Assembly (NCBI GenBank): GCA_964394505.1
Contig: CAYMXR010000001.1
Location: 9,878-73,877 of the forward strand
Direction of reading: 5' to 3'
Source of the DNA: an uncultured Candidatus Saccharibacteria bacterium
GTDB lineage: Bacteria > Patescibacteriota > Minisyncoccia > Phycocordibacterales > PALSA-1337
DNA: 64,000 nucleotides
Every line of letters starts with the position of its first letter. Positions within the stretch are counted from its first letter, which is position 1. Shown here piece by piece: positions 1 to 64,000 of this stretch. The translations under genes and the position numbers were made by a program. Under the pieces are notes generated by a model. It saw only the letters and a list, made by a program, of their open reading frames with translations. It did not search any database and was not told the origin of the DNA.

Positions 1-1251
1 AACATCACCTGATGATGTAGCGGTATCAACTGAGCCATTGTCGTTAAAATACTGACTCGGATTGCTGTAAATATCCTGACCACCACCAAGAGACCAATCA
101 ACCTGACTCAAATATCCTTGACCTGTTATCTTCGTCTCGTCATTTCCAGATCTCGAGATTGCGACTGAAACGCCAGATATTGGCAATCCTGTTACGACAT
201 CAGTTACGGACACCATCAAACTATTACCATTTTTTGGTACGACTACCAGTTGAATCTCCTGATTATTATCCGGATTCAGAGAAAAAGGACTATTGGGATT
301 GATACCGGCCACATCATAACTATCATCTCTAGGAGTAAGTGTGTATGTATCCCATTCCATAGAATTGAGGTCGAGAATGCCGCTACTATTCGTAGCCAAT
401 GTTTCTGAATATTTTGAAACCCCAGCACCAATGTTTTTTGCTCCAATCAAATCAAAATCGATATTTGCTATTGGCACACAAAGTGGAGAGACGCTAGATA
501 TTCGAAGAGTGCTCAACTTGTCAATTGCAAAACTAGCCTGACTAACCTGTTGATTCAAAATTGTAACATTTGGTTTGGTTGGGTTTGGATTACCAGCACC
601 ACCAAAAGCAAAAGTCTCTTCGGTCGAATAACCATCTTTTGATACAACTATTTTATACATATTTGTACCAGGTGGTACACCTATGACATTTAAAATTCCG
701 TAATTATTGGTAACATCTGTATTTCTAATAGAAGATGTTGCAACACTTTGTAAATCTACAGTTGCACCCTGAACTGGTTCACCATTTGCATTAAAAACTT
801 GAGCAACAAAAGCACCGCCATTCCCTGCCGACTGAAGATTGGCTGGTGCGATCTGGCCCGTTAAACTAACTGGCTGGAAATTGTGACAAGCTGGGCAATC
901 GACATTTACTTCTACCAATCTTTGACTAGCTTGAACCGTACTTGTTGATAGATTAATGTTTCGTATAACCAGATTAACATCGAAACTTATTCCTCCACGA
1001 GAAACCGTCTTGTTTCTTTCCAAAACACCAACAGGTATTCCATCTGTTAGACCGATATTTAGATACGGCATATTTCTAACGATCTCAAGTTGCTCAGACG
1101 CCAATTGTACCGCTAGAGTTCTAGCTTGATTTCCACTTGCAAGCTTGATCAGGTTTGTGAAAGAACTATAAATAGCAACTGCAACAATAAGAAAAATGGC
1201 TGAGCCAACCAAGACTTCCATAAGTGTAAAACCGTTAGTATTTCTTTTCAT
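1..1251 (-). CDS. Type IV pilin-like protein, large, C-terminally truncated by the window edge. The N-terminus MKRNTNGFTLMEVLVGSAIFLIVAVAIY carries the class III prepilin cleavage/methylation motif (G|FTLxE)
   Basis: Translated by hand from the minus strand; the ATG is the reverse complement of 1249-1251. The prepilin motif is followed by a hydrophobic helix. Lies downstream of pilB-pilC on the same strand. Missing from the ORF track because it runs off the window. Confidence 0.6.
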   Translation of the reverse strand, partial: MKRNTNGFTLMEVLVGSAIFLIVAVAIYSSFTNLIKLASGNQARTLAVQLASEQLEIVRNMPYLNIGLTDGIPVGVLERNKTVSRGGISFDVNLVIRNINLSTSTVQASQRLVEVNVDCPACHNFQPVSLTGQIAPANLQSAGNGGAFVAQVFNANGEPVQGATVDLQSVATSSIRNTDVTNNYGILNVIGVPPGTNMYKIVVSKDGYSTEETFAFGGAGNPNPTKPNVTILNQQVSQASFAIDKLSTLRISSVSPLCVPIANIDFDLIGAKNIGAGVSKYSETLATNSSGILDLNSMEWDTYTLTPRDDSYDVAGINPNSPFSLNPDNNQEIQLVVVPKNGNSLMVSVTDVVTGLPISGVSVAISRSGNDETKITGQGYLSQVDWSLGGGQDIYSNPSQYFNDNGSVDTATSSGDV

Positions 1252-1255
1252 TTTG

Positions 1256-1411
1256 TTTATTATAGCAATCCCTAATGATCAATGCTCAATAACCCCTTCT
1301 TCGCTCTCCGCTTCGCTACGAGCTTCCTCCTTCGCTAAAGCTTCGGAAGGACAGGTCTACGGGCAAGCAAGTGAATCGCAGCGTGCTTAATTGGAAATTG
1401 AAAATTAATCA
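1256..1411. repeat. Structured intergenic repeat related to 4549-4700. Shares CAATAACCCCTNCTNCGCTC and an AATGATCAATG block, and holds GGGCAAGCAAGTGAATCGCAG, which is the reverse complement of 4626-4646.
   Basis: Direct and inverted matches, compared by eye. Confidence 0.5.
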
Positions 1412-2629
1412 TTACATCGCATCCACCAAAGAATACATCGGTTGAATCATTGAAATTGCAAAAAATCCTACTGCCCCGCCAATGACCAAGATCAATATCG
1501 GCTCGATAATTGTAGACATATCTTTTGTTTTTTGGTTTACATCTTCCTCAAAATATTTTGCTACGCCCATTAACATTTCTCCAGTTTTACCTGTTTCTTC
1601 ACCAACACTCATCATTTCAACAAAGAAAATAGGATAATATTTCGTATACTCAGCAAATGTTTTTGACATCAATTCACCATTTTTGATAGCAAGAGAGGCT
1701 TTTTCCAAAGCTTTTTGAAAATAAATATTCTGAACAACCCTTGAAGTGATATTGACTGATTCGACTACATCTACTCCAGAACTGAGCAAAGAAGACATTG
1801 TTCTAGCAGTACGGGCAGTGTTAACTTCTTGCACCAAAGTTCCGATGACGGGAATCTTGAGTAAAAAAGCATGGATTGCCATTTTTCCGGAAGTCTTGCG
1901 CGCCCACCAGGATATAACTCCGATGACGGATAGTACAACAGCAAGAACAACCAAACCGTGATCCCTAACAAGATTACTTATAATCAAAACCACCTGGGTA
2001 GTTGCAGGTAATTTGACATGAAGATCGGTAAAAGTCTTGAGCAAAGTCGGAATAACAAACATAAACATGAGTATCGCAATGATGATCATCGCTATCAAGA
2101 TAACCGCTGGGTACATGAGCGCACCTCTGATCCTTTTGTCCAGAGTATATGCACTATCCATCTGTGAGGCTACAATAGCAAGAGAATCTGCCAAAGTTCC
2201 AGATTGCTCTCCAGCATGGACCATAGCAATGAATAGGTTTGAAAATACTTTTGGATGTTTGGACAAAGAATCAGCAAGAGTAACTCCTTTATCAACTTCC
2301 TGAATAACATCAGATATCACAGTTTTGAATACTGGATTCTTTGTCTGTTTCTCCAAAACAACAAGAGCTCTCGAAAGAGCCAAACCGGCCGATAACATCG
2401 CCCCTAGATTTCTAGCAAAATTTATCTTTTCAATAGTCTTGACCCTGCTCAACATAGAGATAGTCAAGTTGAGATGGATGCCTTTTCCATTTGATTTTTC
2501 TTTGTATTCTACAACTTCATCACCTTGACTACGAAGTAATTTGTACAATTCATAATGATCAGAAGCATCTCGCTCCCCTTTGTATATCTCTCCTGATATT
2601 TTTTTTGCTTTGAAAATAAAGTGGGACAT
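1412..2629 (-). CDS. pilC: Type IV pilus assembly platform protein PilC / GspF family
   Basis: 405 aa with two GspF repeats and three TM segments; adjacent to pilB on the same strand. Confidence 0.8.
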   Translation of the reverse strand: MSHFIFKAKKISGEIYKGERDASDHYELYKLLRSQGDEVVEYKEKSNGKGIHLNLTISMLSRVKTIEKINFARNLGAMLSAGLALSRALVVLEKQTKNPVFKTVISDVIQEVDKGVTLADSLSKHPKVFSNLFIAMVHAGEQSGTLADSLAIVASQMDSAYTLDKRIRGALMYPAVILIAMIIIAILMFMFVIPTLLKTFTDLHVKLPATTQVVLIISNLVRDHGLVVLAVVLSVIGVISWWARKTSGKMAIHAFLLKIPVIGTLVQEVNTARTARTMSSLLSSGVDVVESVNITSRVVQNIYFQKALEKASLAIKNGELMSKTFAEYTKYYPIFFVEMMSVGEETGKTGEMLMGVAKYFEEDVNQKTKDMSTIIEPILILVIGGAVGFFAISMIQPMYSLVDAM

Positions 2630-2745
2630 GATAGTGAAAAATTATAAGTGCAAAGTGAAAATTTAGATCTATAAATTTCAAATCAGTTTCAATCTTAAAT
2701 CTAAAATCTAAACTGATACCCGAACAAAACTCCTCAATCTCACAA

Positions 2746-4494
2746 CTAATCTGTAATCACACGCAAAACTTCTTCGATCGTAGTCAAACCTTGAACACAT
2801 TTGAATATACCGTCTTCCAACATGGTCAACATCCCCTCTTTTTTGGCTTGTTCTTCTATTTCACTCGAGGTTGCATTTTTCATGATCAAATTCTTGATTG
2901 ATTGGGTCATAGTCAAAACTTCGTGAATACCGACGCGACTCTTGAAACCATCATCGTCTGGTCCTGGTACAGCTTTCCAAAAAGATATTCTATCCCAATT
3001 ATCAGATGGCTTTATTATCTTCCCAGCCTTAAGCGCAGCTAAAACCCTATCGAGATCAACAATCTTTCCCAATTGAGCAAATTCATCCTTGGTCAATTTG
3101 TATTCTTGTTTGAGATCAGACAACCGACGTACCAATCGTTGGCCGATAACCACATCGAGAGTAGAAACCAAAAGAAATGGCTCAACTTTCATATCCAAAA
3201 GACGAGGAATCGCGCCAGCAGCAGAGTTTGTGTGTAAAGTAGAAAGAACCAAGTGTCCAGTAAGAGCCGCGTTTATAGCTAGTGCCGCTGTTTCATTGTC
3301 TCGAATCTCTCCTACCATGATCACATCTGGGTCTTGTCTAACCAAAGTTCGTATACCTTGAGGAAATGAAAAACCGATCTCTGGTCGAACTTGAGTCTGG
3401 TTTATCCGAGCCATCTGGTATTCGATAGGATCTTCTATTGTCGAAATATTAACATCCGGAGTATTCAAAATATCTAACATTGTATACAAAGTAGTAGTTT
3501 TTCCAGAACCAGTGGGGCCCGTCATGAGAATCATGCCTGTGGTTTTTTTCAGCACTTTATGAATAGCTTCAAGTCCTTCCCCATGAAAATTGAGATACTC
3601 CAAAGTAAAACCAGATATACTTTCGCGCAAAAGACGCATAACTATCTTTTCTCCATAATAAGTAGGCAGTATCGATACACGGAAAGAAACTTTTTCATCA
3701 CTCATGTCCACTTTGAAACGACCATCTTGAGGTAAACGCTTTTCATCGAGTTTCAAATTTGCCAATACCTTGATCCTAGCCGAAACCGATGGACCAGCCT
3801 GTTTTGGAAGCACCATCGCATCATGCAACAAGCCATCGATCCTGTACCTTATCAAAACCTGTTCTTCCATTGGCTCAATGTGAATATCGGATGCGTTTTG
3901 TAAAATTGCATGCTTAATGAGTGTGTCAACTATGCGGACGACTGGTAAATCTTCGGCAATCTTTTTTAGATCGGCCTCTGTGGCGTTTTCTCCACTTTCC
4001 TCAGAGATCATCTTGAGCGATGCTGTCTCTTTTTGGATTAGATCACCGAATTCTGCTTTTAGACTTTTCTGATATTGAACCAAAACTTCCTTGATCGAAT
4101 CCGAATCAGTCAGACGAGGCAAAATCTTTAGATTGACTTTCTTTTTAATAAAATCAATAGCCGAAAGGTCATTTACATCAAGCATTGCAACTTCCAAAGC
4201 AACATCGGTTTTTTTGAAAGCGACGATATTGTGAGCTCTTGCAATAGGTTCTGGAATAAGAGTTAATGTTTCAAAAGGTAGTTTTTTGCCTTTAAGATCA
4301 ACAAAAGGAATACCCAAACCATAGGCTTGCATTCGGCGGAGATTGTCGGCACTGATCTTGCCAGAAGTGACCAAAACATCTCCAAATGGTTTCTTTTTCG
4401 ACTCGCTTTCTTTCTTTGCGTCCAAAAGATCCTCTTTGCTTACCAAGCCAGAGTCGAGAATAAATTTATATAATTGGGTATCTTCAACGAGCAT
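2746..4494 (-). CDS. pilB: Type IV pilus assembly ATPase PilB / GspE family
   Basis: Walker A GPTGSGKTTTLY; Asp box and His box typical of the GspE family. The track start at 4548 is a TTG; the ATG at 4494 (MLVEDTQLYKF) is preferred. Lacks the C-terminal tetracysteine motif. Confidence 0.85.
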   Translation of the reverse strand: MLVEDTQLYKFILDSGLVSKEDLLDAKKESESKKKPFGDVLVTSGKISADNLRRMQAYGLGIPFVDLKGKKLPFETLTLIPEPIARAHNIVAFKKTDVALEVAMLDVNDLSAIDFIKKKVNLKILPRLTDSDSIKEVLVQYQKSLKAEFGDLIQKETASLKMISEESGENATEADLKKIAEDLPVVRIVDTLIKHAILQNASDIHIEPMEEQVLIRYRIDGLLHDAMVLPKQAGPSVSARIKVLANLKLDEKRLPQDGRFKVDMSDEKVSFRVSILPTYYGEKIVMRLLRESISGFTLEYLNFHGEGLEAIHKVLKKTTGMILMTGPTGSGKTTTLYTMLDILNTPDVNISTIEDPIEYQMARINQTQVRPEIGFSFPQGIRTLVRQDPDVIMVGEIRDNETAALAINAALTGHLVLSTLHTNSAAGAIPRLLDMKVEPFLLVSTLDVVIGQRLVRRLSDLKQEYKLTKDEFAQLGKIVDLDRVLAALKAGKIIKPSDNWDRISFWKAVPGPDDDGFKSRVGIHEVLTMTQSIKNLIMKNATSSEIEEQAKKEGMLTMLEDGIFKCVQGLTTIEEVLRVITD

Positions 4495-4548
4495 TAGGTT
4501 AATTATAATGCTATAAAACTTTTTAGTCCAATAGTTGTAAATTACCAA

Positions 4549-4700
4549 TTTTCAATTATCAATAACCCCTACTACGCTCGCTAATCGCGAGCTTCGCAGG
4601 GCAGGCAATGATCAATCAAACACACTGCGATTCACTTGCTTGCCCTTCGTAGCCCCGAGTTTTTATCGAGGGGCGTAGAAGGGAAAATTGATAATTATTT
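4549..4700. repeat. MITE-like palindromic element with imperfect terminal IRs (ATTATCAATAACCCCTACTACG / CGTAGAAGGGAAAATTGATAAT), a central 12/14 hairpin, and a CCCGAGTTTTTATCGAGGGG hairpin
   Basis: Seen directly in the sequence. Confidence 0.5.
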
Positions 4701-4952
4701 AAACCATTTGCACGCATTTGACAGTCATGCTATACTATTGTCGTCAAGTAACTGTTCGCCCACCGGCGAACATGTTTGTTAAAAGGGAGAATGTTTAGTG
4801 CAAAGTGTAAAGTTTTAGTTAATAGTTGATATTTATTATATTAAAATACTATACTGACTCAAAAAACTTAACGCCTTTCCACCACAACTTTGCATTTTAC
4901 ACTTTGCACTTTTCACTTACAATACAATTTAATAAAAACTAAATATAAGAAC

Positions 4953-6113
4953 ATGTTTGATCTAAAAGTAATTAATTCAGTAGTTCAACAATTAGAAGAA
5001 GAACGAGGTATTCCAAAAGAAAAGACACTGGAAGCCATCTCCATGGCCTTTGCTACTGCTTACAAAAAAGAATACGGCAAGAAAGGCCAGATTATTCGCG
5101 CTTCATTTGACCAAAACTCTGGTGCTGTTGAATTTTGGCAGGTAAAGATAGTAGTTGACCATGATCAAGTGATCATGGAAGGCGATGAAGATACTCAAGA
5201 AAATCTCAAAGAGACTGCCGTAGAAGACATCAAGATCCGCTTCAACCCAGAACAACACATTTTCATCGAAGATGCGCGCAAGATAAAGAGAGAAGCGATC
5301 ATCGGTGATGAATTGGTTTTTCCACTTGAGACAAAAGCTGATTTTGGTCGCATCGCCGCTCAGACAGCAAAACAAATCATCATCCAAAAGATTCGCGAGG
5401 CTGAAAAAGTCTCGGTTATGAGCGAATACGGCCAAAAAGAAGGTGAAATTGTCGCTGGAATAGTCGAAAGAGTCGAAAGGGGTGTCATATATATAGATAT
5501 GGGACGAGCGATTGGTGTTATTCCTTACGAAGAACAGATCCCTAGCGAACATTGGAAAACTGGTGACCGTATTCGCGCCTATCTCTTTGCCGTTGAAGAG
5601 ACACCAAAAGGCATTGTCCTCAAGCTTTCTCGCGCTCATCCAAAATTCCTCGCAAAACTATTTGAAACAGAGACCCCAGAGATTGCCTCCGGTGTTGTTG
5701 AGATCAAAAATGTTGCCCGAGAAGCAGGATCGAGATCGAAGATTGCAGTTATTTCTCATGATTCACATATCGATCCGATCGGATCCATGGTTGGTCAAAG
5801 AGGTGTACGCGTAACAACAGTTACCAGCGAGCTTTCTGGTGAAAAGATAGATATTGTCGAATGGAATGAGGATCCTGCTCTATTTATTGAGGAAGCCCTC
5901 TCTCCTGCCGAAGTTGTTTCTCTAGAATTAGATGAAAAAGAACATCGAGCTATAGTTACCGTCACCGAAGATGAGCAATCATTAGCAATCGGTAAGGGTG
6001 GCCAAAATGTCCGCCTTGCCGCCAAACTCACCGGCTGGAAGATTGATATCAAGTCAATTGGAGGAATAGAAGAGTTGGATTTACCTGAGAATGCTGAAGG
6101 TGTAGAGAAATAG
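4953..6113 (+). CDS. nusA: Transcription termination/antitermination factor NusA
   Basis: MFDLKVINSVVQQLEEERGIPKE N-terminus, S1 and KH regions; the track start at 4890 is extended and the ATG at 4953 is used. Confidence 0.9.
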   Translation: MFDLKVINSVVQQLEEERGIPKEKTLEAISMAFATAYKKEYGKKGQIIRASFDQNSGAVEFWQVKIVVDHDQVIMEGDEDTQENLKETAVEDIKIRFNPEQHIFIEDARKIKREAIIGDELVFPLETKADFGRIAAQTAKQIIIQKIREAEKVSVMSEYGQKEGEIVAGIVERVERGVIYIDMGRAIGVIPYEEQIPSEHWKTGDRIRAYLFAVEETPKGIVLKLSRAHPKFLAKLFETETPEIASGVVEIKNVAREAGSRSKIAVISHDSHIDPIGSMVGQRGVRVTTVTSELSGEKIDIVEWNEDPALFIEEALSPAEVVSLELDEKEHRAIVTVTEDEQSLAIGKGGQNVRLAAKLTGWKIDIKSIGGIEELDLPENAEGVEK

Positions 6114-10659: not shown

Positions 10660-11748
10660 ATGACAAATACAAATCAAAAAGAGACTATTAAATCTTATGA
10701 AAAGCTTGTTACAAAAAACTTGGATAAATCTCGTGTCGAGATAAGCGCTTCGATACCTGCAGAAGTTTGGGAAGAAAATCGAGCCAAAGCCCTCAAAAAT
10801 CTAAATGATTCTGTAACCATAGATGGTTTCCGCAAGGGCATGGTTCCAGAAAATATTTTGATAAACAAAGTAGGTCAAAATACCATTAATGAAGAGATGG
10901 CAGAATTGGCACTCTCGAAAGCTTATCTTGATATTTTGATCGATAACAAGATAGATGCTGTCGGTCGACCACAAGTACAAATTACAAAACTTGCTTCCGG
11001 CAATCCCCTCGAATTCAAAGCGACAACAGCTGTAGTTCCTACTGTCAAACTTCCAGATTACAAAAAGATTGCCGAGAAAGAGACAAAAGCGGATGCAAAA
11101 AATGAAATTAAAGTTGAAGAAAAAGATCTTGATGAAGCTATTTTGAAGATTCGTAAATCTCGTGTTTCACACGAAGGTCACGATCACGAAAAGATGACCC
11201 CTGAAGAACATGAAAAGGCAATCCTCGATTCTCTACCAGAATTCAACGATGAGTTTGTACGCGGTCTTGGTGACTTCAAAGATGTAGAGGATTTCAAGAC
11301 AAAGGTTCGTGAAATGATTGGTCAAAACAAGAGAGATGAAGCTCGTGAAAAGTTGCGCATCAAGATTGCCGATGCCCTCCTAGAAGCTACAACCATCGAG
11401 CTTCCCGAGATTATGATAGAAAGTGAACTTGATCGCACTCAAGCACAATTCTCCGGAGATATAGAAAAAATGGGAGTGAAACTTGAAGACTATCTCAAGC
11501 ATGCCAAAAAATCTCTAGAAGAGATCCGCAAAGAATGGACTCCTCATGCTGAGAAAAAAGCAAAATTACAATTGATCCTAAATGCAATAGCTGATACTGA
11601 AAAGATCAAGCCTGATCCAAAAGAGATAGAGGATGAAGTAAAACATATCATCGAGCATTACAAAGATGCTGACCGCGAAAGAGCTTCTACTTATGCGGAG
11701 ACCGTGCTAACCAACGAGAAAGTTTTCAGGATGTTGGAGGGAAAATAA
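10660..11748 (+). CDS. tig: Trigger factor (short form, no obvious PPIase domain)
   Basis: N-terminal ribosome-binding signature DGFRKGMVP; 362 aa. Confidence 0.7.
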   Translation: MTNTNQKETIKSYEKLVTKNLDKSRVEISASIPAEVWEENRAKALKNLNDSVTIDGFRKGMVPENILINKVGQNTINEEMAELALSKAYLDILIDNKIDAVGRPQVQITKLASGNPLEFKATTAVVPTVKLPDYKKIAEKETKADAKNEIKVEEKDLDEAILKIRKSRVSHEGHDHEKMTPEEHEKAILDSLPEFNDEFVRGLGDFKDVEDFKTKVREMIGQNKRDEAREKLRIKIADALLEATTIELPEIMIESELDRTQAQFSGDIEKMGVKLEDYLKHAKKSLEEIRKEWTPHAEKKAKLQLILNAIADTEKIKPDPKEIEDEVKHIIEHYKDADRERASTYAETVLTNEKVFRMLEGK

Positions 11749-11833: not shown

Positions 11834-12586
11834 TTACATCAACACCTTCGATAGGGCAACGACTGCGGCTGTCTCAGCACGCAAAATCTGTTTACCAAGG
11901 CTGCAAATCGAGACCTTGTTAGCGTGAAACATGTCTAGCTCAGCCGTCGACCACCCTCCTTCTGGCCCTATGAAAACAGCTAGCGACTGTCCGGCGAGGT
12001 CTGACCTCGCCCCACCATCTGTATGAAAAGCAACACCTCTGATAGATTCTGAGCCATCATTTGCGACAGGTTGAGAAAAAACCTGGGCGAGGTCAGACCT
12101 CGCCGAATGTACCACCGGTACATCACCCCTCCCACACTGTTCACTCGCCTCTACTGCAATTTTTTGCAGGCGTTCCATATTCAAATCTTTTTTTTCACTC
12201 CGTTCTGTGATAACTGGAACAATATCGGTAACACCGAGCTCGGTTGCTTTTTCCGTAATCCACTCAAATTTATCTTTTTTTACGACCGCCTGATATAAGA
12301 CAACTTTTCGCGTTGGCATAAATCGGCTAGGTCGGACCTCGCAGACTGCTAAATGCAATTGGCTCCCTCCGCGAGGTTTTTTACCCCGAGCGAAGTCGAG
12401 GGGAACCTCAAGGAGAACACATTCAAAATCATTACCAGACCCATCGAAAACTACAATCTTGTCGCCAGAACCCAAACGGAAAACTCGACTGATCTGATTT
12501 ACAAGTTCAGGCGAATCGATAACCAACTCTTTTTTTGAGCCAATTTTTTCTGTGATGTAAAATCGATGAAGTCTCATTTTGATCAC
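11834..12586 (-). CDS. rsmE: 16S rRNA (uracil1498-N3)-methyltransferase RsmE, carrying three in-frame palindromic-repeat insertions
   Basis: MRLHRFYI...VVFDGSG...IGPEGGWS...RAETAA motifs. The gene is GC-rich relative to its neighbours. Confidence 0.75.
   Translation of the reverse strand: MIKMRLHRFYITEKIGSKKELVIDSPELVNQISRVFRLGSGDKIVVFDGSGNDFECVLLEVPLDFARGKKPRGGSQLHLAVCEVRPSRFMPTRKVVLYQAVVKKDKFEWITEKATELGVTDIVPVITERSEKKDLNMERLQKIAVEASEQCGRGDVPVVHSARSDLAQVFSQPVANDGSESIRGVAFHTDGGARSDLAGQSLAVFIGPEGGWSTAELDMFHANKVSICSLGKQILRAETAAVVALSKVLM
11993..12011. repeat. Palindromic repeat GGCGAGGTC-T-GACCTCGCC (copy A, in-frame in rsmE, encodes ARSDLA)
   Basis: Perfect 9+1+9 palindrome. Confidence 0.8.
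12086..12104. repeat. Palindromic repeat GGCGAGGTC-A-GACCTCGCC (copy B, in-frame in rsmE)
   Basis: Perfect 9+1+9 palindrome. Confidence 0.8.
12328..12346. repeat. Degenerate copy of the palindromic repeat (GCTAGGTCGGACCTCGCAG), copy C, in-frame in rsmE
   Basis: Imperfect palindrome sharing the GGTCGGACCTCGC core. Confidence 0.5.
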
Positions 12587-15025: not shown

Positions 15026-15036
15026 CTTCTAAATAG

Positions 15037-15110
15037 TGCAAAGTGAAAAGTGAAAAATGCAAAGTTCTGTCGCGTCTGCGATTTCACTTTGCATTTTGCA
15101 CTACTAAATT
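15037..15110. repeat. GTGCAAAGTGAAAAGTGAAAAATGCAAAG ... TTTCACTTTGCATTTTGCAC imperfect palindrome (member of the GTGCAAAGTGAAAA motif family), between rny and hup
   Basis: Seen directly; related copies at 2649-2667, 4798-4816 and 4880-4912. Confidence 0.5.
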
Positions 15111-15276
15111 TGCATTAATATATGTCACATGTCAATCCACAACCATGGTTGCTTATAATACGGCTTACTATATAATTATAGCCATGGATCGAGACTCGTC
15201 TGCTCTCCCCTCGGAGATAGCGGTGCGGGGCGAGACCAGTTCGAGATTAATAATTATTAGAATAATAAAAACAACT

Positions 15277-15549: not shown

Positions 15550-15581
15550 CACGCTTAGGTATTTCAATTTACAAAGTAACA

Positions 15582-15614
15582 AAAAACCCTGAGCATGTCG
15601 AAGGGTTTTTTGTT
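15582..15614 (+). terminator. Rho-independent terminator (AAAAACCCT-GAGCATGTCGA-AGGGTTTTTT); copy 1 of a duplicated ~65-bp module
   Basis: Stem-loop plus T-run directly after hup. Confidence 0.7.
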
Positions 15615-15629
15615 ATTTGAGCACAAACC

Positions 15630-18851: not shown

Positions 18852-18885
18852 TATCACGCCTAGGTATTTCAATTTTCAAAGTAAC

Positions 18886-18920
18886 AAAAGACCCTGAGCA
18901 TGTCGAAGGGTTTTTTGTTA
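18886..18920 (+). terminator. Rho-independent terminator; copy 2 of the duplicated ~65-bp module (near-identical to 15547-15614)
   Basis: Same stem-loop sequence and flanks as the hup terminator. Confidence 0.65.
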
Positions 18921-18941
18921 AAGCAATTAATCTGCCTGCGG

Positions 18942-19994: not shown

Positions 19995-20087
19995 AATTCA
20001 AATTGTAACATACTCATGCGTAAATTTCCCAAAGAAAAAGAGGTGCCTTATTTTTAAGATTTAAGATTTGAGATTTTATATTTAATG

Positions 20088-20746: not shown

Positions 20747-20817
20747 TGCGGGTAGGGAGAATCGAACTCCCACCTCGTCCTTGGCAAGGACGCGTCCTAC
20801 CACTAAACGATACCCGC
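20747..20817 (-). tRNA. tRNA-Gly (anticodon GCC); CCA not encoded
   Basis: Anticodon loop TTGCCAA, T-loop TTCGATT, 7-bp acceptor stem GCGGGTA/TACCCGC. Confidence 0.8.
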
Positions 20818-21063
20818 CTACGCAAATTTAGACCTCCGGTCTAAATTCGCTACGGCGGGCAAGCCCGCTTTGTCCGTAGTAATCTAGAACGAATTAATTG
20901 CCTAAATAAGCAACAAAAGAAGTATACCGTAATAATATTTTTTTACAAATCTAAATGTGCTGGCACTACTACACTCCTCGCAAGCTCAGCGCTACGAAGT
21001 GCTGGCACTACGAAGCCCTACATCGCGCACCAGCACACTGGTGCGCGATTGCGGGCGAAGTAG

Positions 21064-21135
21064 TGCCCTCGGAGGGACTCGAACCCCCAACAGCGGTTCC
21101 GAAGACCGATGTGATATCCATTTCACCACGAGGGC
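21064..21135 (-). tRNA. tRNA-Arg (anticodon UCG); CCA not encoded
   Basis: Acceptor GCCCTCG/CGAGGGC, perfect D-stem, anticodon loop CTTCGGA, T-loop TTCGAGT; one mismatch at the base of the anticodon stem. Confidence 0.6.
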
Positions 21136-24959: not shown

Positions 24960-25880
24960 TTAGCCACGCTTCTTCCCATGAAACATTTTATGGACCTTTC
25001 GGAGTTCCGCATCAGTCACATGAGTATATATTTGCGTTGTATTTATATTGGAGTGACCAAGCAGCATCTGGACCGAACGAAGATCAGCGCCGTTGGAGAG
25101 TAGGTCGGTGGCGAACAGATGCCTCAAAACGTGAGGCGTAACCTTTTTAGAAATACCGGCTTTGATGGCACAGTATTTGATAATCCTCTCAACCGAGCGC
25201 GGATCGAGAGCTAGATCGCCATTCTTGGCGCTTTCCCGACTTAACCTGATAAATAAGGCGTCATCTACATCTACTCTCTTGTCCAGATATTCTTTTATAG
25301 CTTTCTTTGCTTCAGAAGAGAGAAATACGACACGGATTTTTTCTCCCTTACCTCGAATAGAGAATTCATCTGCATCAAGATCTAGATCACGCGATAGGGA
25401 ACAGAGTTCTGAGACACGCAATCCTGTTGAAAAAAGTAACTCTAGTATGGCTTTATCTCTTAATGATTTCAGGTCTTTGCCATCCGAGGAAGCAAGCAGT
25501 CTTTTTAATTCTTCTCCAGAAATAAGATCCAAATGCCTCTCTCCAACTTTGGCTAGCTCTATATGCTCTGGTGAAAGAGACTTGACCCCTCTCTTTACTA
25601 GGAATTTCAAAAATGCCCTAAGAGCAATCAGGTAATAATTCTGAGTTTTCTTTTTCAGAGTCTTGCTGTCAGGATTTTTACCGCTTGGCTGACGGTTCAA
25701 CCATAGATGAAACTCTCGCACCATTCTATCTGTTATATCTTCGGCTCTTTTTAGCTTGGAATAATCTATAAATCGAGTCAAATAGTGATCATAGTTCCGC
25801 ACCGTAAGCAGAGAACGGCCTTTTTCGATCTCTATATATTCAAGAAACTGTTGTTTTAGATCATGAAGATTTTGCGACAT
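24960..25880 (-). CDS. xerC: Tyrosine site-specific recombinase, XerC/XerD family
   Basis: HVLRHLFATDLLSNGADLRSVQMLLGHSNINTTQIYTHV catalytic region (R..H..R..Y). Confidence 0.85.
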   Translation of the reverse strand: MSQNLHDLKQQFLEYIEIEKGRSLLTVRNYDHYLTRFIDYSKLKRAEDITDRMVREFHLWLNRQPSGKNPDSKTLKKKTQNYYLIALRAFLKFLVKRGVKSLSPEHIELAKVGERHLDLISGEELKRLLASSDGKDLKSLRDKAILELLFSTGLRVSELCSLSRDLDLDADEFSIRGKGEKIRVVFLSSEAKKAIKEYLDKRVDVDDALFIRLSRESAKNGDLALDPRSVERIIKYCAIKAGISKKVTPHVLRHLFATDLLSNGADLRSVQMLLGHSNINTTQIYTHVTDAELRKVHKMFHGKKRG

Positions 25881-28013: not shown

Positions 28014-28044
28014 CGCTTCCGGCGAGGTCGGACCTCGCCGGAAA
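28014..28044. repeat. Extended perfect palindrome TTCCGGCGAGGTC-G-GACCTCGCCGGAA (copy D), 10 nt upstream of the pnp ATG
   Basis: 13+1+13 palindrome. Confidence 0.8.
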
Positions 28045-30206: not shown

Positions 30207-30300
30207 AGAGAGGTAGGAGCTAAGAGGTAAGAGTTAAGAATTTAACACGCTGGGCTTTCCTCTTACCTACTAACTCCTACCTCTTAACTCTAACTCTCTG
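30207..30300 (+). terminator. Large imperfect hairpin with ~40-nt arms built from GTAAGAG/CTAAGAG-like 7-mers; probable pnp terminator
   Basis: GAGAGAGGTAGGAGCTAAGAGGTAAGAGTTAAG pairs with CTTAACTCTAACTCTC... downstream. Confidence 0.5.
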
Positions 30301-32023: not shown

Positions 32024-32090
32024 GATTTTCTTCATCGTTTCTTTATCAGAAATTCATCAGGATTTTATCTCTCTTTGATATTATCCATCC

Positions 32091-62356: not shown

Positions 62357-62400
62357 AAGAGGGAAGTTCTGCGAATGCTATATTTTCCGCGAGGTGTTGT

Positions 62401-62427
62401 GGAGGGCGAGGTCGGACCTCGCCCTCC
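62401..62427. repeat. Extended perfect palindrome GGAGGGCGAGGTC-G-GACCTCGCCCTCC (copy E) in the divergent spacer
   Basis: 13+1+13 palindrome. Confidence 0.8.
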
Positions 62428-62532
62428 AATCGATCTTGACAAGTGAGGTCTATCCGTGCTAGTATCATAAGCGAATCTCAAGGCTGTGTGGTCTTGGGGA
62501 AAAACAACAATTCAGAAATCGGAGAACTTAGA

Positions 62533-63117: not shown

Positions 63118-63540
63118 ATGAAAAACACAAATAATTCAAAGATCATCCTTGTAGCATTGGCAGTAATGCTCGCTTTTGGCGTTGTTTCTATTATGCCAGA
63201 AAGTGCAAATGCTGGTTACGGCTACTCTGAATCTGGTTATTATGGTAGTGGTGCCAACTATTACGGTTCTTATTATGACGGCAGTGGACACGGTTATTAT
63301 TCTGGTGGCATGTATGTTCAAGGTTTAGCCGGACAACAGTCACCATGGTACCCATCTATAGTTGTGCCGATCGAGAGTCAAAGTTTCTTCATAGAACAAA
63401 CTTGGAGAAATTACGGCTTTAGTAGTCGTGACCTTAAACCTTTTTCTAACTCCTACTCTAGTCAATATTACAACTCCTACTCAAATTCCTACCATCCAGT
63501 ACAAAATTCTGGTGGCTTAAGAGGTGGTTACGGATATTAA
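63118..63540 (+). CDS. Secreted Gly/Tyr/Ser-rich low-complexity protein
   Basis: Signal peptide, then GYGYSESGYYGSGANYYGSYYDGSGHGYY and a C-terminal SYSSQYYNSYSNSY run. Confidence 0.4.
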   Translation: MKNTNNSKIILVALAVMLAFGVVSIMPESANAGYGYSESGYYGSGANYYGSYYDGSGHGYYSGGMYVQGLAGQQSPWYPSIVVPIESQSFFIEQTWRNYGFSSRDLKPFSNSYSSQYYNSYSNSYHPVQNSGGLRGGYGY

Positions 63541-63680
63541 GACTACCGGGATGTCTTCCTCGACTTCCCTCGACTTCGCTCCCTCGACTGGTTCGACAGG
63601 CTCACCACAAGAAAGCTCGGGACAAGATCGGGATAAATCGCTCGGAATAGACCTCATCCTTTTTGTGATATATTATTTAC

Positions 63681-64000
63681 ATGCAAAAACGCATCTCGCA
63701 TAGCCTAGAAGAAACAGATCAAATTGCCCGAGAGTGGCTTTTGGAAATGGAGACGAAATACGCGCAAAGAGACAGAGCTCTCGTCGTCGGCTTGTCCGGA
63801 CATCTAGGGGCAGGCAAGACCGCTTTTGTAAAAGCGGTGGCGAAGGCTTTGGAAATAGAGGAATCGGTTACAAGTCCGACTTTTGTCATAATGAAGATGT
63901 ACGACTGCCGATCCATTCAATGGAAAAAACTAATACACATTGATCTATATCGCCTAGAAAAGAAAGAAGAGATGGTTGCGTTAAAATTGGAAGAAGTGAT
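63681..64000 (+). CDS. tsaE: tRNA threonylcarbamoyladenosine biosynthesis ATPase TsaE (partial, runs off the window)
   Basis: GLSGHLGAGKTAFVKAVAKAL P-loop and the SPTF motif. Confidence 0.75.
   Translation, partial: MQKRISHSLEETDQIAREWLLEMETKYAQRDRALVVGLSGHLGAGKTAFVKAVAKALEIEESVTSPTFVIMKMYDCRSIQWKKLIHIDLYRLEKKEEMVALKLEEV

Follow-up and report, generated by a model that had tools for sequence, protein, structure and literature searches.

Bacterial spacers host several kinds of small repeat, among them miniature inverted-repeat transposable elements (MITEs) such as the Correia elements of Neisseria, the modular BOX and RUP repeats of pneumococci, BOX being built from reusable submodules, and the heptanucleotide tandem repeats of cyanobacteria known as short tandemly repeated repetitive (STRR) sequences. 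The genomes of the candidate phyla radiation (CPR, Patescibacteria) are small, and repeats and mobile DNA are generally said to be scarce in them. In Enterobacteria and Pseudomonas, repetitive extragenic palindromic (REP) sequences of the REP/RAYT system are joined by a linker to an inverse REP in bacterial interspersed mosaic elements (BIMEs), and a conserved GTAG or GTGG tetranucleotide lies 5′ of the palindrome foot (Ton-Hoang et al. 2012, PMC3333891). The TAACTGA repeats of Beggiatoaceae consist of one dominant heptamer, almost always in direct repeats (PMC4679880), and GC-rich repetitive hairpin elements (RHE) occur in the AT-rich mitochondrial genome of a sponge (PMC2800124). Here we analyzed a 64,000-nucleotide (nt) stretch, called the window below, of contig CAYMXR010000001.1 from an uncultured Candidatus Saccharibacteria bacterium, and in particular two spacers, elements L and R, that flank its type IV pilus genes pilB and pilC.

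L and R are probably independent clusters, both built from one small intergenic palindrome, the repeat unit U, which has multiplied in the spacers of this genome. The unit belongs to a REP/BIME- or MITE-like family, new in itself but of a known kind, and the locus appears to reflect ordinary repeat-element turnover, not a pilus switch. The genes and spacers concerned are as follows, with contigs from other samples and from relatives cited by L numbers.

1..1251, minus strand: pilin-like gene, 5′ part; start codon at 1251-1249, begins MKRNTNGFTLMEV...; 587 amino acids (aa) in L037
1256..1411: element L, the 160-nt spacer from the pilC stop to the pilin-like start; a decayed U-unit cluster with AT-rich heptamer arms
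1412..2629, minus strand: pilC, T2SSF platform protein, 405 aa, PF00482
2746..4494, minus strand: pilB, MshEN and T2SSE ATPase, 582 aa
4540..4700: element R, a strongly folding four-way-junction palindrome between the divergent pilB and nusA-leader promoters

The U unit in the two spacers

The original prediction held that pilB-pilC is bracketed by related spacers sharing direct and inverted blocks, with the pilin-like gene beginning beside the left copy, and on these points it was borne out. The direct block (1267-1306 versus 4540-4579; 40 nt, 78% identity) contains CAATAACCCCTNCTNCGCTC at 1287 and 4560, its longest exact run being 12 nt. The inverted block (1361-1400 versus 4606-4645; 40 nt, 85%) includes an exact 21-mer, GGGCAAGCAAGTGAATCGCAG, at 1361 on the plus strand and 4625 on the minus strand. 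Smith-Waterman scores of L against R were 22 in direct and 28 in inverted orientation, far above those of 1,000 dinucleotide shuffles (8.8±1.3, maximum 15). Within the window R matches itself and L only, and the match between L and R is limited to these two blocks, about half their length. Neither block pattern was found elsewhere in the 64 kb, shuffles giving about zero matches.

The U unit is approximately 40 to 60 nt long, with the frame 5′-CCYYYC-TWC-GC[variable stem-loop]GC-TWC-GRRRGG-CAAG...-3′. Its outer stem is C/U-rich and 6 bp long; a 3x3 internal loop (CT[A/T]C.../...GCT[A/T]CG), an inner G-C stem and an A/T-rich loop complete the hairpin, which is followed by the 3′ tail CAAG(CAAGTGAATCGCAG). 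AT-rich tandem repeats of 7 nt generally lie on either side of the unit. A strict regular expression (perfect 5-bp stem, 3x3 loop, stem of at least 4 bp) recovered one unit, and a covariance model was needed for the others. Model R1 was built only from U1, one of the units of R, and an element of the relative L014; model R2 was built from seven units.

R is a tail-to-tail inverse pair of two units, U1 on the plus strand and U2 on the minus strand.

4540..4565, plus strand: R left arm, period-7 array AATTACC AATTTTC AATTATC AAT; Tandem Repeats Finder 4540-4563, period 7, 3.4 copies
4562..4612, plus strand: unit U1, CCCCTAC-TAC-GCTCGC taatc GCGAGC-TTC-GCAGGG-CAGGCAA; model R1 70.6 bits
4625..4688, minus strand: unit U2, CCCTTC-TAC-GCCCC..GGGGC-TAC-GAAGGG-CAAGCAAGTGAATCGCAG; its tail is the 21-mer
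4683..4700, plus strand: R right arm, GAAAATTGATAATTATTT, the inverse of the R left arm

The tails of U1 and U2 (CAAGCAA...) face each other and pair, forming the central hairpin of R. For the whole element (4552-4698), the folding energy is about -61 kcal/mol on each strand (z -7.6 on the plus strand, -6.4 on the minus strand). The fold has a closing stem and three hairpins, and these inner hairpins also fold singly (z -2.3 for U1, -2.9 and -3.3). Its terminal inverted repeats (4554-4577/4673-4696) match over 24 nt at 83%, with a further 14 nt at 93%. L, in contrast, folds no better than shuffles (-29/-36 kcal/mol, z +0.35/+0.40), and its pieces corresponding to the R hairpins have z values of about 0. 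Only an imperfect outer stem is left in its minus-strand fold, the inner hairpins having decayed. Thus, of the long hairpins predicted for each spacer, those of R are present and those of L are not.

1267..1292, plus strand: L left arm, CAAT-type heptamers AATGATC AATGCTC AATAA; within the 40-nt direct match to the R left arm
1293..1324, plus strand: 5′ half-unit of L ("a-head"), CCCCTTC-TTC-GCTC...GAGC-TTC; matches the U1 head directly; weak R1 match at 1289-1358, 13.8 bits
1321..1360, plus strand: small full unit "b" of L, TCCTCC-TTC-GC-TAAA-GC-TTC-GGAAGGA-CAGG; R2 29.2 bits, but a training member of R2
1357..1400, plus strand: 3′ half-unit tail of L, CTAC-GGG-CAAGCAAGTGAATCGCAG then YGTGYTTRATTG; holds the exact 21-mer at 1361-1381; matches the U2 tail inverted
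1386..1411, plus strand: L right arm, ATTG-type heptamers TTAATTG GAAATTG AAAATTA; imperfect inverse of the L left arm

This parsing is consistent with one unit having been nested in another in L, with subsequent decay. The head of L matches U1 directly and its tail matches U2 in reverse because L carries its units in one orientation, whereas R is an inverse pair of the same unit. No inversion event is therefore required, and the "inverted internal segment" originally reported is not an inversion.

The unit is dispersed. Model R1 matched U2 on the minus strand of R (4688-4636; 39.8 bits, E 3e-7), an element in L018 (26.9 bits) and a copy downstream of pgk in the same organism (L037:7919-7970, 23.1 bits). 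The hairpin of U1 is identical at 38 of 47 positions to L014:7968-8014, with a compensatory C-G to T-A change; this element sits between two pilin-like genes in a relative with PilC 67% identical. The third hairpin of R shares 40 of 46 positions with the hairpin directly after the pgk stop codon (L037, same organism, 8 kb outside the window), and unit b of L is of the same subtype as L018:11218-11259, a hairpin after pgk in L018. Two more units constitute a second inverse pair, between tRNA-Arg and tRNA-Gly genes.

20810..20870, plus strand: U unit at the tRNA-Gly(gcc) 5′ end, CCCGCC-TAC-GC..GC-TAC-GGCGGG-CAAGC; R1 18.2 bits, E 0.019
20996..21069, minus strand: U unit directly 3′ of tRNA-Arg(tcg); R2 20.2 bits, E 1e-3; the sole R2 member outside the training set

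The sequence read for this organism amounts to about 73 kb, the window being extended by 8.6 kb on its left by L037, and it holds six full U units, all intergenic. Two were found in about 440 kb of relatives, where R2 added none. A search for further copies had been proposed as a check; such copies were found next to two tRNA genes, downstream of pgk and in two distant relatives.

We aligned seven units on the invariant frame CC..CT.CGC ... GCT.CG..G. In the outer stem, 96.4% of the cells were paired and three pairs were changed on both sides (C-G/A-U/U-A, U-A/G-C and C-G/U-A/A-U). Its covariation score was 0.351, compared with 0.084±0.049 in shuffles (0 of 500 as high) and at most 0.107 for slid partners. 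The outer stem of the unit is supported by compensatory changes.

With Rfam, only tRNAs reached the gathering score, and the sole match in L/R at E≤10 was sok (13.6 bits, its gathering score being 59). Neither an 18-mer of the repeat nor the gapped U1 pattern matched viral contigs, and BLAST against phages and plasmids was also without match. Our literature searches found no descriptions of such repeats in CPR, Parcubacteria or Patescibacteria.

Gain and loss of the elements and their possible effect on the pilus locus

Comparison of the locus across strains showed R present, absent or replaced among close strains, and L constant. Four contigs, each from a different sample, have the same L sequence. 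The window and L003/L048 (JGI contig) contain R, of which the three Logan contigs L046/L049/L051 contain a part. In contrast, L047, a strain approximately 99.5% identical over 7.6 kb and with an identical NusA, has an intact L but no R: about 39 unrelated nt stand in place of 4508-4705, with pilB and its -10 box intact. In L052 (PilB 98% identical), a different 125-nt hairpin with heptamer arms lies between the flanks found in the window, ggtttaa ... attggactaaaaag. As these flanks are common to the window and the more distant L052 but missing in L047, L047 most likely lost the R region. The intact R hairpins (z -2.3 to -3.3) and the decayed L pieces (z about 0) fit a younger, polymorphic R and an older, fixed L.

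L046, L049 and L051, which come from one sequencing project, all start at 4646 inside R, right after the 21-mer. This start may mark a further R allele in those samples. Inversion was rejected as its cause, since in a k=31 graph the break would be expected at the other side of the 21-mer.

Neither element occurs in the relatives, and the junction occupied by L differs there. The spacer from pilC to the pilin gene measures 1 to 7 nt in 12 of the 20 relatives with a locatable pilin start, versus 160 nt here, and on this sequence comparison tight coupling is the ancestral state. Three other lineages (L015, L020 and L025) have independently gained hairpins with heptamer arms in the same spacer. 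Insertion of L would thus have split an ancestrally coupled pilC-pilin junction, and the spacer so created would now hold a promoter for the pilin gene, of an extended -10, leaderless type.

1259..1267, minus strand: extended -10 box TGCTATAAT, read from sequence, exactly 7 nt before the pilin-like ATG (1251-1249)

L ends 3 nt upstream of TGCTATAAT. The leaderless-type reading of the pilin-like gene follows from the 7-nt distance of the -10 box from the ATG and the lack of a Shine-Dalgarno sequence. The geometry is the same at pilB (4494-4510, compared with 1251-1267 at the pilin-like gene): TATAAT-N7-ATG, again with no Shine-Dalgarno sequence, conserved at pilB in L011, L014 and L052. This arrangement points to leaderless transcripts for both genes. 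In the relatives this junction is too short for a promoter; it is therefore probably L, or DNA brought in together with L, that separated the pilin gene from pilC and provided the pilin gene with a start of its own.

At the other end, the true start of pilB is the ATG at 4494, not the TTG at 4548, and its predicted promoter (TGGACT-17-TATAAT, 4530-4502) places the -10 box 7 nt before that ATG. Divergent from pilB, nusA begins at 4953, and a promoter is predicted for its leader at 4707-4736 (TTTGCA-18-TATACT). R lies outside both predicted transcription units, upstream of both promoters. As it is dispensable in the sister strain L047, we read R as nonfunctional or at most structural DNA. The U units would have spread as selfish or neutral DNA, and candidate routes are REP/RAYT-like single-strand transposition and template switching or gene conversion between hairpins.

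If this reading is right, a REP/BIME-like family with covariation, gain and loss at the strain level and reused spacers implies that CPR intergenic DNA turns over quickly, and L offers a concrete case of an insertion that parted a pilin gene from pilC, the new spacer holding a promoter of its own. For annotation, such palindromes interrupt the assembly of metagenomes and may be misread as structured RNAs or switches; the switch for pilus phase variation suspected here can be struck off the list.

Several observations were made on the neighboring genes. The window has a GC content of about 40%, its nearest relatives place it with a Paceibacterota/Parcubacteria-type member of the Patescibacteria, and the gene order at all junctions is pilin<-pilC<-pilB|nusA. 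The pilin-like gene has a prepilin N-terminus, GFTLMEV, with a weak match to PF07963 (N_methyl). L037 and L038, two samples of one species, differ at 183 positions in 11.9 kb, and about 65 of the first 80 differences fall within 800 nt of the pilin-like gene (approximately 2800-3600; window approximately 1-520), pilC and L being nearly invariant. By this distribution, the large pilin-like gene contains a hypervariable domain. Three pilin-like genes stand behind pilC in the organism of the window and in L059-L062; they are missing in the L053-L058 lineage (PilB 93% identical), where tpiA directly follows pilC.

The spacer between nusA and pilB measures 157 to 162 nt in L014 and L019, versus 459 nt here. 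It reaches about 840 nt in L011 (5318-6160), L012 (5321-6163) and L059/L062, another sign of an insertion hot spot. In L059-L062 a gene of 171 to 250 aa, with no Pfam match, is called in it. The 5′ leader of nusA (window 4707-4785) consists of the promoter-like TTTGCA-18-TATACT, then a hairpin, TGTTCGCC-CACC-GGCGAACA (4753-4772), and TGTTTGTTAAAAG. The hairpin and a TTAACAAA motif are conserved in L011-L014, L019, L025, L026, L035 and L052, the remaining spacer being unalignable, and the hairpin is a candidate, putative NusA autoregulatory attenuator.

Weighing the alternatives

The original prediction had offered three options for the repeats: rearrangement of the pilus locus, its regulation, or MITE-like insertions. 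The last comes closest, in that both spacers are lineage specific and composed of a dispersed palindromic unit and R is present or absent among near-identical strains; the target-site duplication and the near-identical full-length copies expected of a MITE are what is lacking.

Some results weigh against our reading of L and R as clusters of a multiplied repeat. Six or seven units were seen, and a copy number beyond the 73 kb is an extrapolation. The window held no full-length second copy of L or R. A 20-mer of the repeat was not found in a species-representative genome collection, and the 18-mer gave seven metagenome matches, all in contigs of 58 to 70% GC with unrelated flanks, that is, chance. 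No transposase, including RAYT (Y1 HUH type, PF01797-like), was found in the 73 kb (50 open reading frames [ORFs] of the window scanned; Pfam tables for the rest). There is no target-site duplication at the borders of R (ggtttaa | ... | attggac) and no clean empty site, the flanks of R being missing in L047 as well, which makes it a replacement and not a precise excision. Compensatory changes mean selection for the hairpin, and this could reflect a host function instead of selfish spread. L may likewise have a function, being fixed in all four spanning contigs and abutting the pilin promoter.

A bolder version, possible but doubtful in our view, is that CPR of the Paceibacteria type carry a fast-turnover intergenic "hairpin cassette" of a hitherto undescribed kind. 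Locus-specific 7-nt arms, possibly amplified from the target, would surround a conserved palindromic unit recognized by some single-strand DNA enzyme. Such cassettes would have landed repeatedly in promoter-proximal spacers, to judge from the three alleles of the R site and the four independent gains in the pilC-pilin spacer. If so, they would split operons, make leaderless-type promoters and rewire the expression of surface-structure genes in genomes nearly without mobile DNA.

An unlikely alternative is a shared cis-regulatory module, in which GAGCG[A/T]AG[A/T]AGGGGTTATTGA (minus strand), upstream of the pilB and pilin promoters, would serve as an operator, UP-like site or RNA element coregulating both. 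The two copies of the block do have the same strand and orientation, upstream of TATAAT-N7-ATG promoters, and the constancy of L in the four spanning contigs and the independent hairpins of L015, L020 and L025 could mean selection for structure. However, L047 has pilB and its -10 box intact but not R, the closest relatives do without both elements, and the block stands 21 nt from the -10 box in L but 51 nt in R. Members of the unit family also lie next to tRNA genes and downstream of pgk, where they have nothing to do with pili, and the mRNA does not include R, since the predicted promoters are downstream of it. L, directly upstream of the pilin -10 box, may have a regulatory role; for R, which a sister strain lacks, such a role is unlikely.

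It is quite unlikely that the units are ordinary intrinsic terminators or 3′-end-stabilizing hairpins, alike by convergence, that L and R happened to gather. On the sense strand, four units do lie immediately behind the 3′ end of a gene or tRNA (tRNA-Arg, pilin1 in L014, and pgk in two lineages), and hairpins with the related tip CGAGTTTTTATCGAG follow the stop codons of nusA and the H+-PPase gene, one with a T-run. Nevertheless, no U-tract was found after the units in L or R and no terminator-like site was called within either spacer; the L units are antisense to pilC and pilin, and R lies between divergent promoters, where nothing needs termination. In the lineage with PilB 93% identity, the spacer from pgk to HIT is 20 nt long and hairpin free. 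Convergence would also leave unexplained the 15-nt and 21-nt near-exact matches between genera whose PilC proteins are 67% identical.

We consider it very improbable that the repeats are recombination substrates, the 21-nt inverted repeat or the 40-nt direct block causing the 3.2-kb pilB-pilC segment to be inverted or deleted and so to act as a switch for phase variation. An inverted repeat of 21 nt without mismatch does flank pilB-pilC, and the three Logan contigs starting at 4646, the edge of the 21-mer, together with L052, which ends 15 nt into an L-like arm, could indicate junction heterogeneity. However, a repeat of 21 nt would not be expected to end a de Bruijn contig at the distal edge of the repeat when k=31. 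The contigs that cross a junction, from five samples or more, all have one arrangement (L001/L002/L037/L038/L047 for L, L003/L048 for R). L alone is present in one strain, and no contig shows inversion or deletion between the repeats. An inversion would take pilB along with its own promoter, so that nothing would be switched. A length of 21 bp is at or below that needed for efficient RecA recombination, and the direct block has no exact run beyond 12 nt. The only recombinase found, a XerC/D-like integrase (24960-25880), lies 20 kb away, with no invertase nearby. The proposal that the repeats mediate rearrangement is not supported.

That R is a gene for a structured noncoding RNA, a 147-nt four-way junction, is just as improbable: its very low folding energy (z -7.6) and defined multibranch fold speak for it, but its strands fold equally well, as for a DNA palindrome, no promoter or terminator is predicted at its borders, R has no Rfam match even at E≤10, it is missing in a near-identical strain and in all relatives, and its parts recur singly in other contexts and orientations. 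Reading the 21-mer as a sigma-54 promoter was rejected by eye, GG-N10-GC being absent.

Other intergenic repeats and comparison with known systems

What is less usual about the family is that the 7-nt arrays around the units are particular to each locus and that the same spacers are used again and again. Across 458 kb, 23 of 40 period-7 arrays were intergenic, although intergenic DNA makes up only 8.9% of the sequence. In the window they lie at 2691-2712, 4540-4563, 4887-4918, 15035-15065, 20053-20085 and 30209-30297, with a heptamer that differs per locus, and relatives have them as well (L013:7875-7975, L025:7490-7579 and L052:~4020-4150). They are short and imperfect, sit in spacers, and are often arranged in inverse orientation so as to make up the arms of a hairpin. 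Between the leader hairpin of nusA and the start codon of this gene stands a hairpin of 134 nt (4789-4922) whose heptamer arms are of the AGTGCAAAGTG type; L047 has it too, and a shorter AT-rich sequence takes its place in L052 (PilB 98% identical). A related array follows the gene for RNase Y (15034-15117).

The hairpin tip motif CGAGTTTTTATCGAG occurs, exactly or with 1 mismatch or a 1- to 2-nt indel, at 4656, 6134, 9220(-), 26950(-), ~27944 and L037:~7938; these sites are behind the stop codons of nusA and the H+-PPase gene, in two other spacers and after pgk. It has four copies at ≤1 mismatch and, at ≤2 mismatches, eight across all loci versus about one in shuffles. It stands in a hairpin context only in this organism, the four matches in relatives having no such context. 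A second GC-rich palindrome family, GGCGAGGTC-N-GACCTCGCC, has at least five copies (11992-12012/12085-12105, ~28017-28043, ~62400-62428 and L037:~11025), and the pair at 11992-12105 is apparently inside an RNA-methyltransferase ORF (11834-12586). Further repeats are a 66-nt direct repeat (95%; 15550-15629 versus 18852-18941) that includes a strong T-run terminator hairpin and a 48-nt inverted match (94%) of window ~32026-32073 to the L037 spacer 11032-11164. Contigs from four samples end about 60 to 200 nt past a gene ending at 63540 (window ~63541-63740), which suggests a repeat or strain-variable region there.

Among described systems, the invertible DNA switches of fim or shufflon type have inverted repeats, as does this locus with its 21-nt repeat, but no recombinase is adjacent here and the spanning contigs have one orientation only. 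The GC-rich modules of sponge RHE and yeast mitochondrial GC clusters belong to another host domain and have no sequence relationship with U; they are alike as GC-rich palindromic modules in the spacers of AT-rich reduced genomes, lineage specific, nested and mosaic. As in STRR and the Beggiatoaceae repeats, 7-nt arrays of two to six copies lie in intergenic DNA, often just upstream of starts. Unlike in Beggiatoaceae, each genome here has many heptamers, often in inverse arrays that serve as hairpin arms around a GC-rich unit.

The MITE, BOX and RUP families resemble L and R in their length of about 150 nt, terminal inverted repeats, strong hairpin potential, intergenic position, strain polymorphism and capacity to lie next to promoters or to provide them. 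The terminal repeats of R (24 nt at 83% plus 14 nt at 93%) are MITE-like, the arm pairing of L being imperfect. Unlike for MITEs, no two full-length copies are alike, no parent insertion sequence with matching ends was found, and the heptamer arms differ per locus.

Comparison with REP/BIME also has its limits: the GTAG-like motif of U (the complement of CT[A/T]CGC) lies on each arm within the internal loop instead of 5′ of the foot; the unit has an asymmetric conserved CAAG... tail and AT-rich heptamer flanks; and there is no sequence similarity, no RAYT gene in the 73 kb read, and a handful of known copies instead of hundreds. Nevertheless, both are imperfect palindromic units of about 40 nt with conserved unpaired bases, extragenic and variable among strains. 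Both conserve a motif containing GTAG/CTAC next to the stem, and CGTAG/CTACG is 2.7-fold enriched in the intergenic DNA analyzed here. Both also occur singly or as inverse pairs with a short linker, as R does with U1 and the inverse U2.

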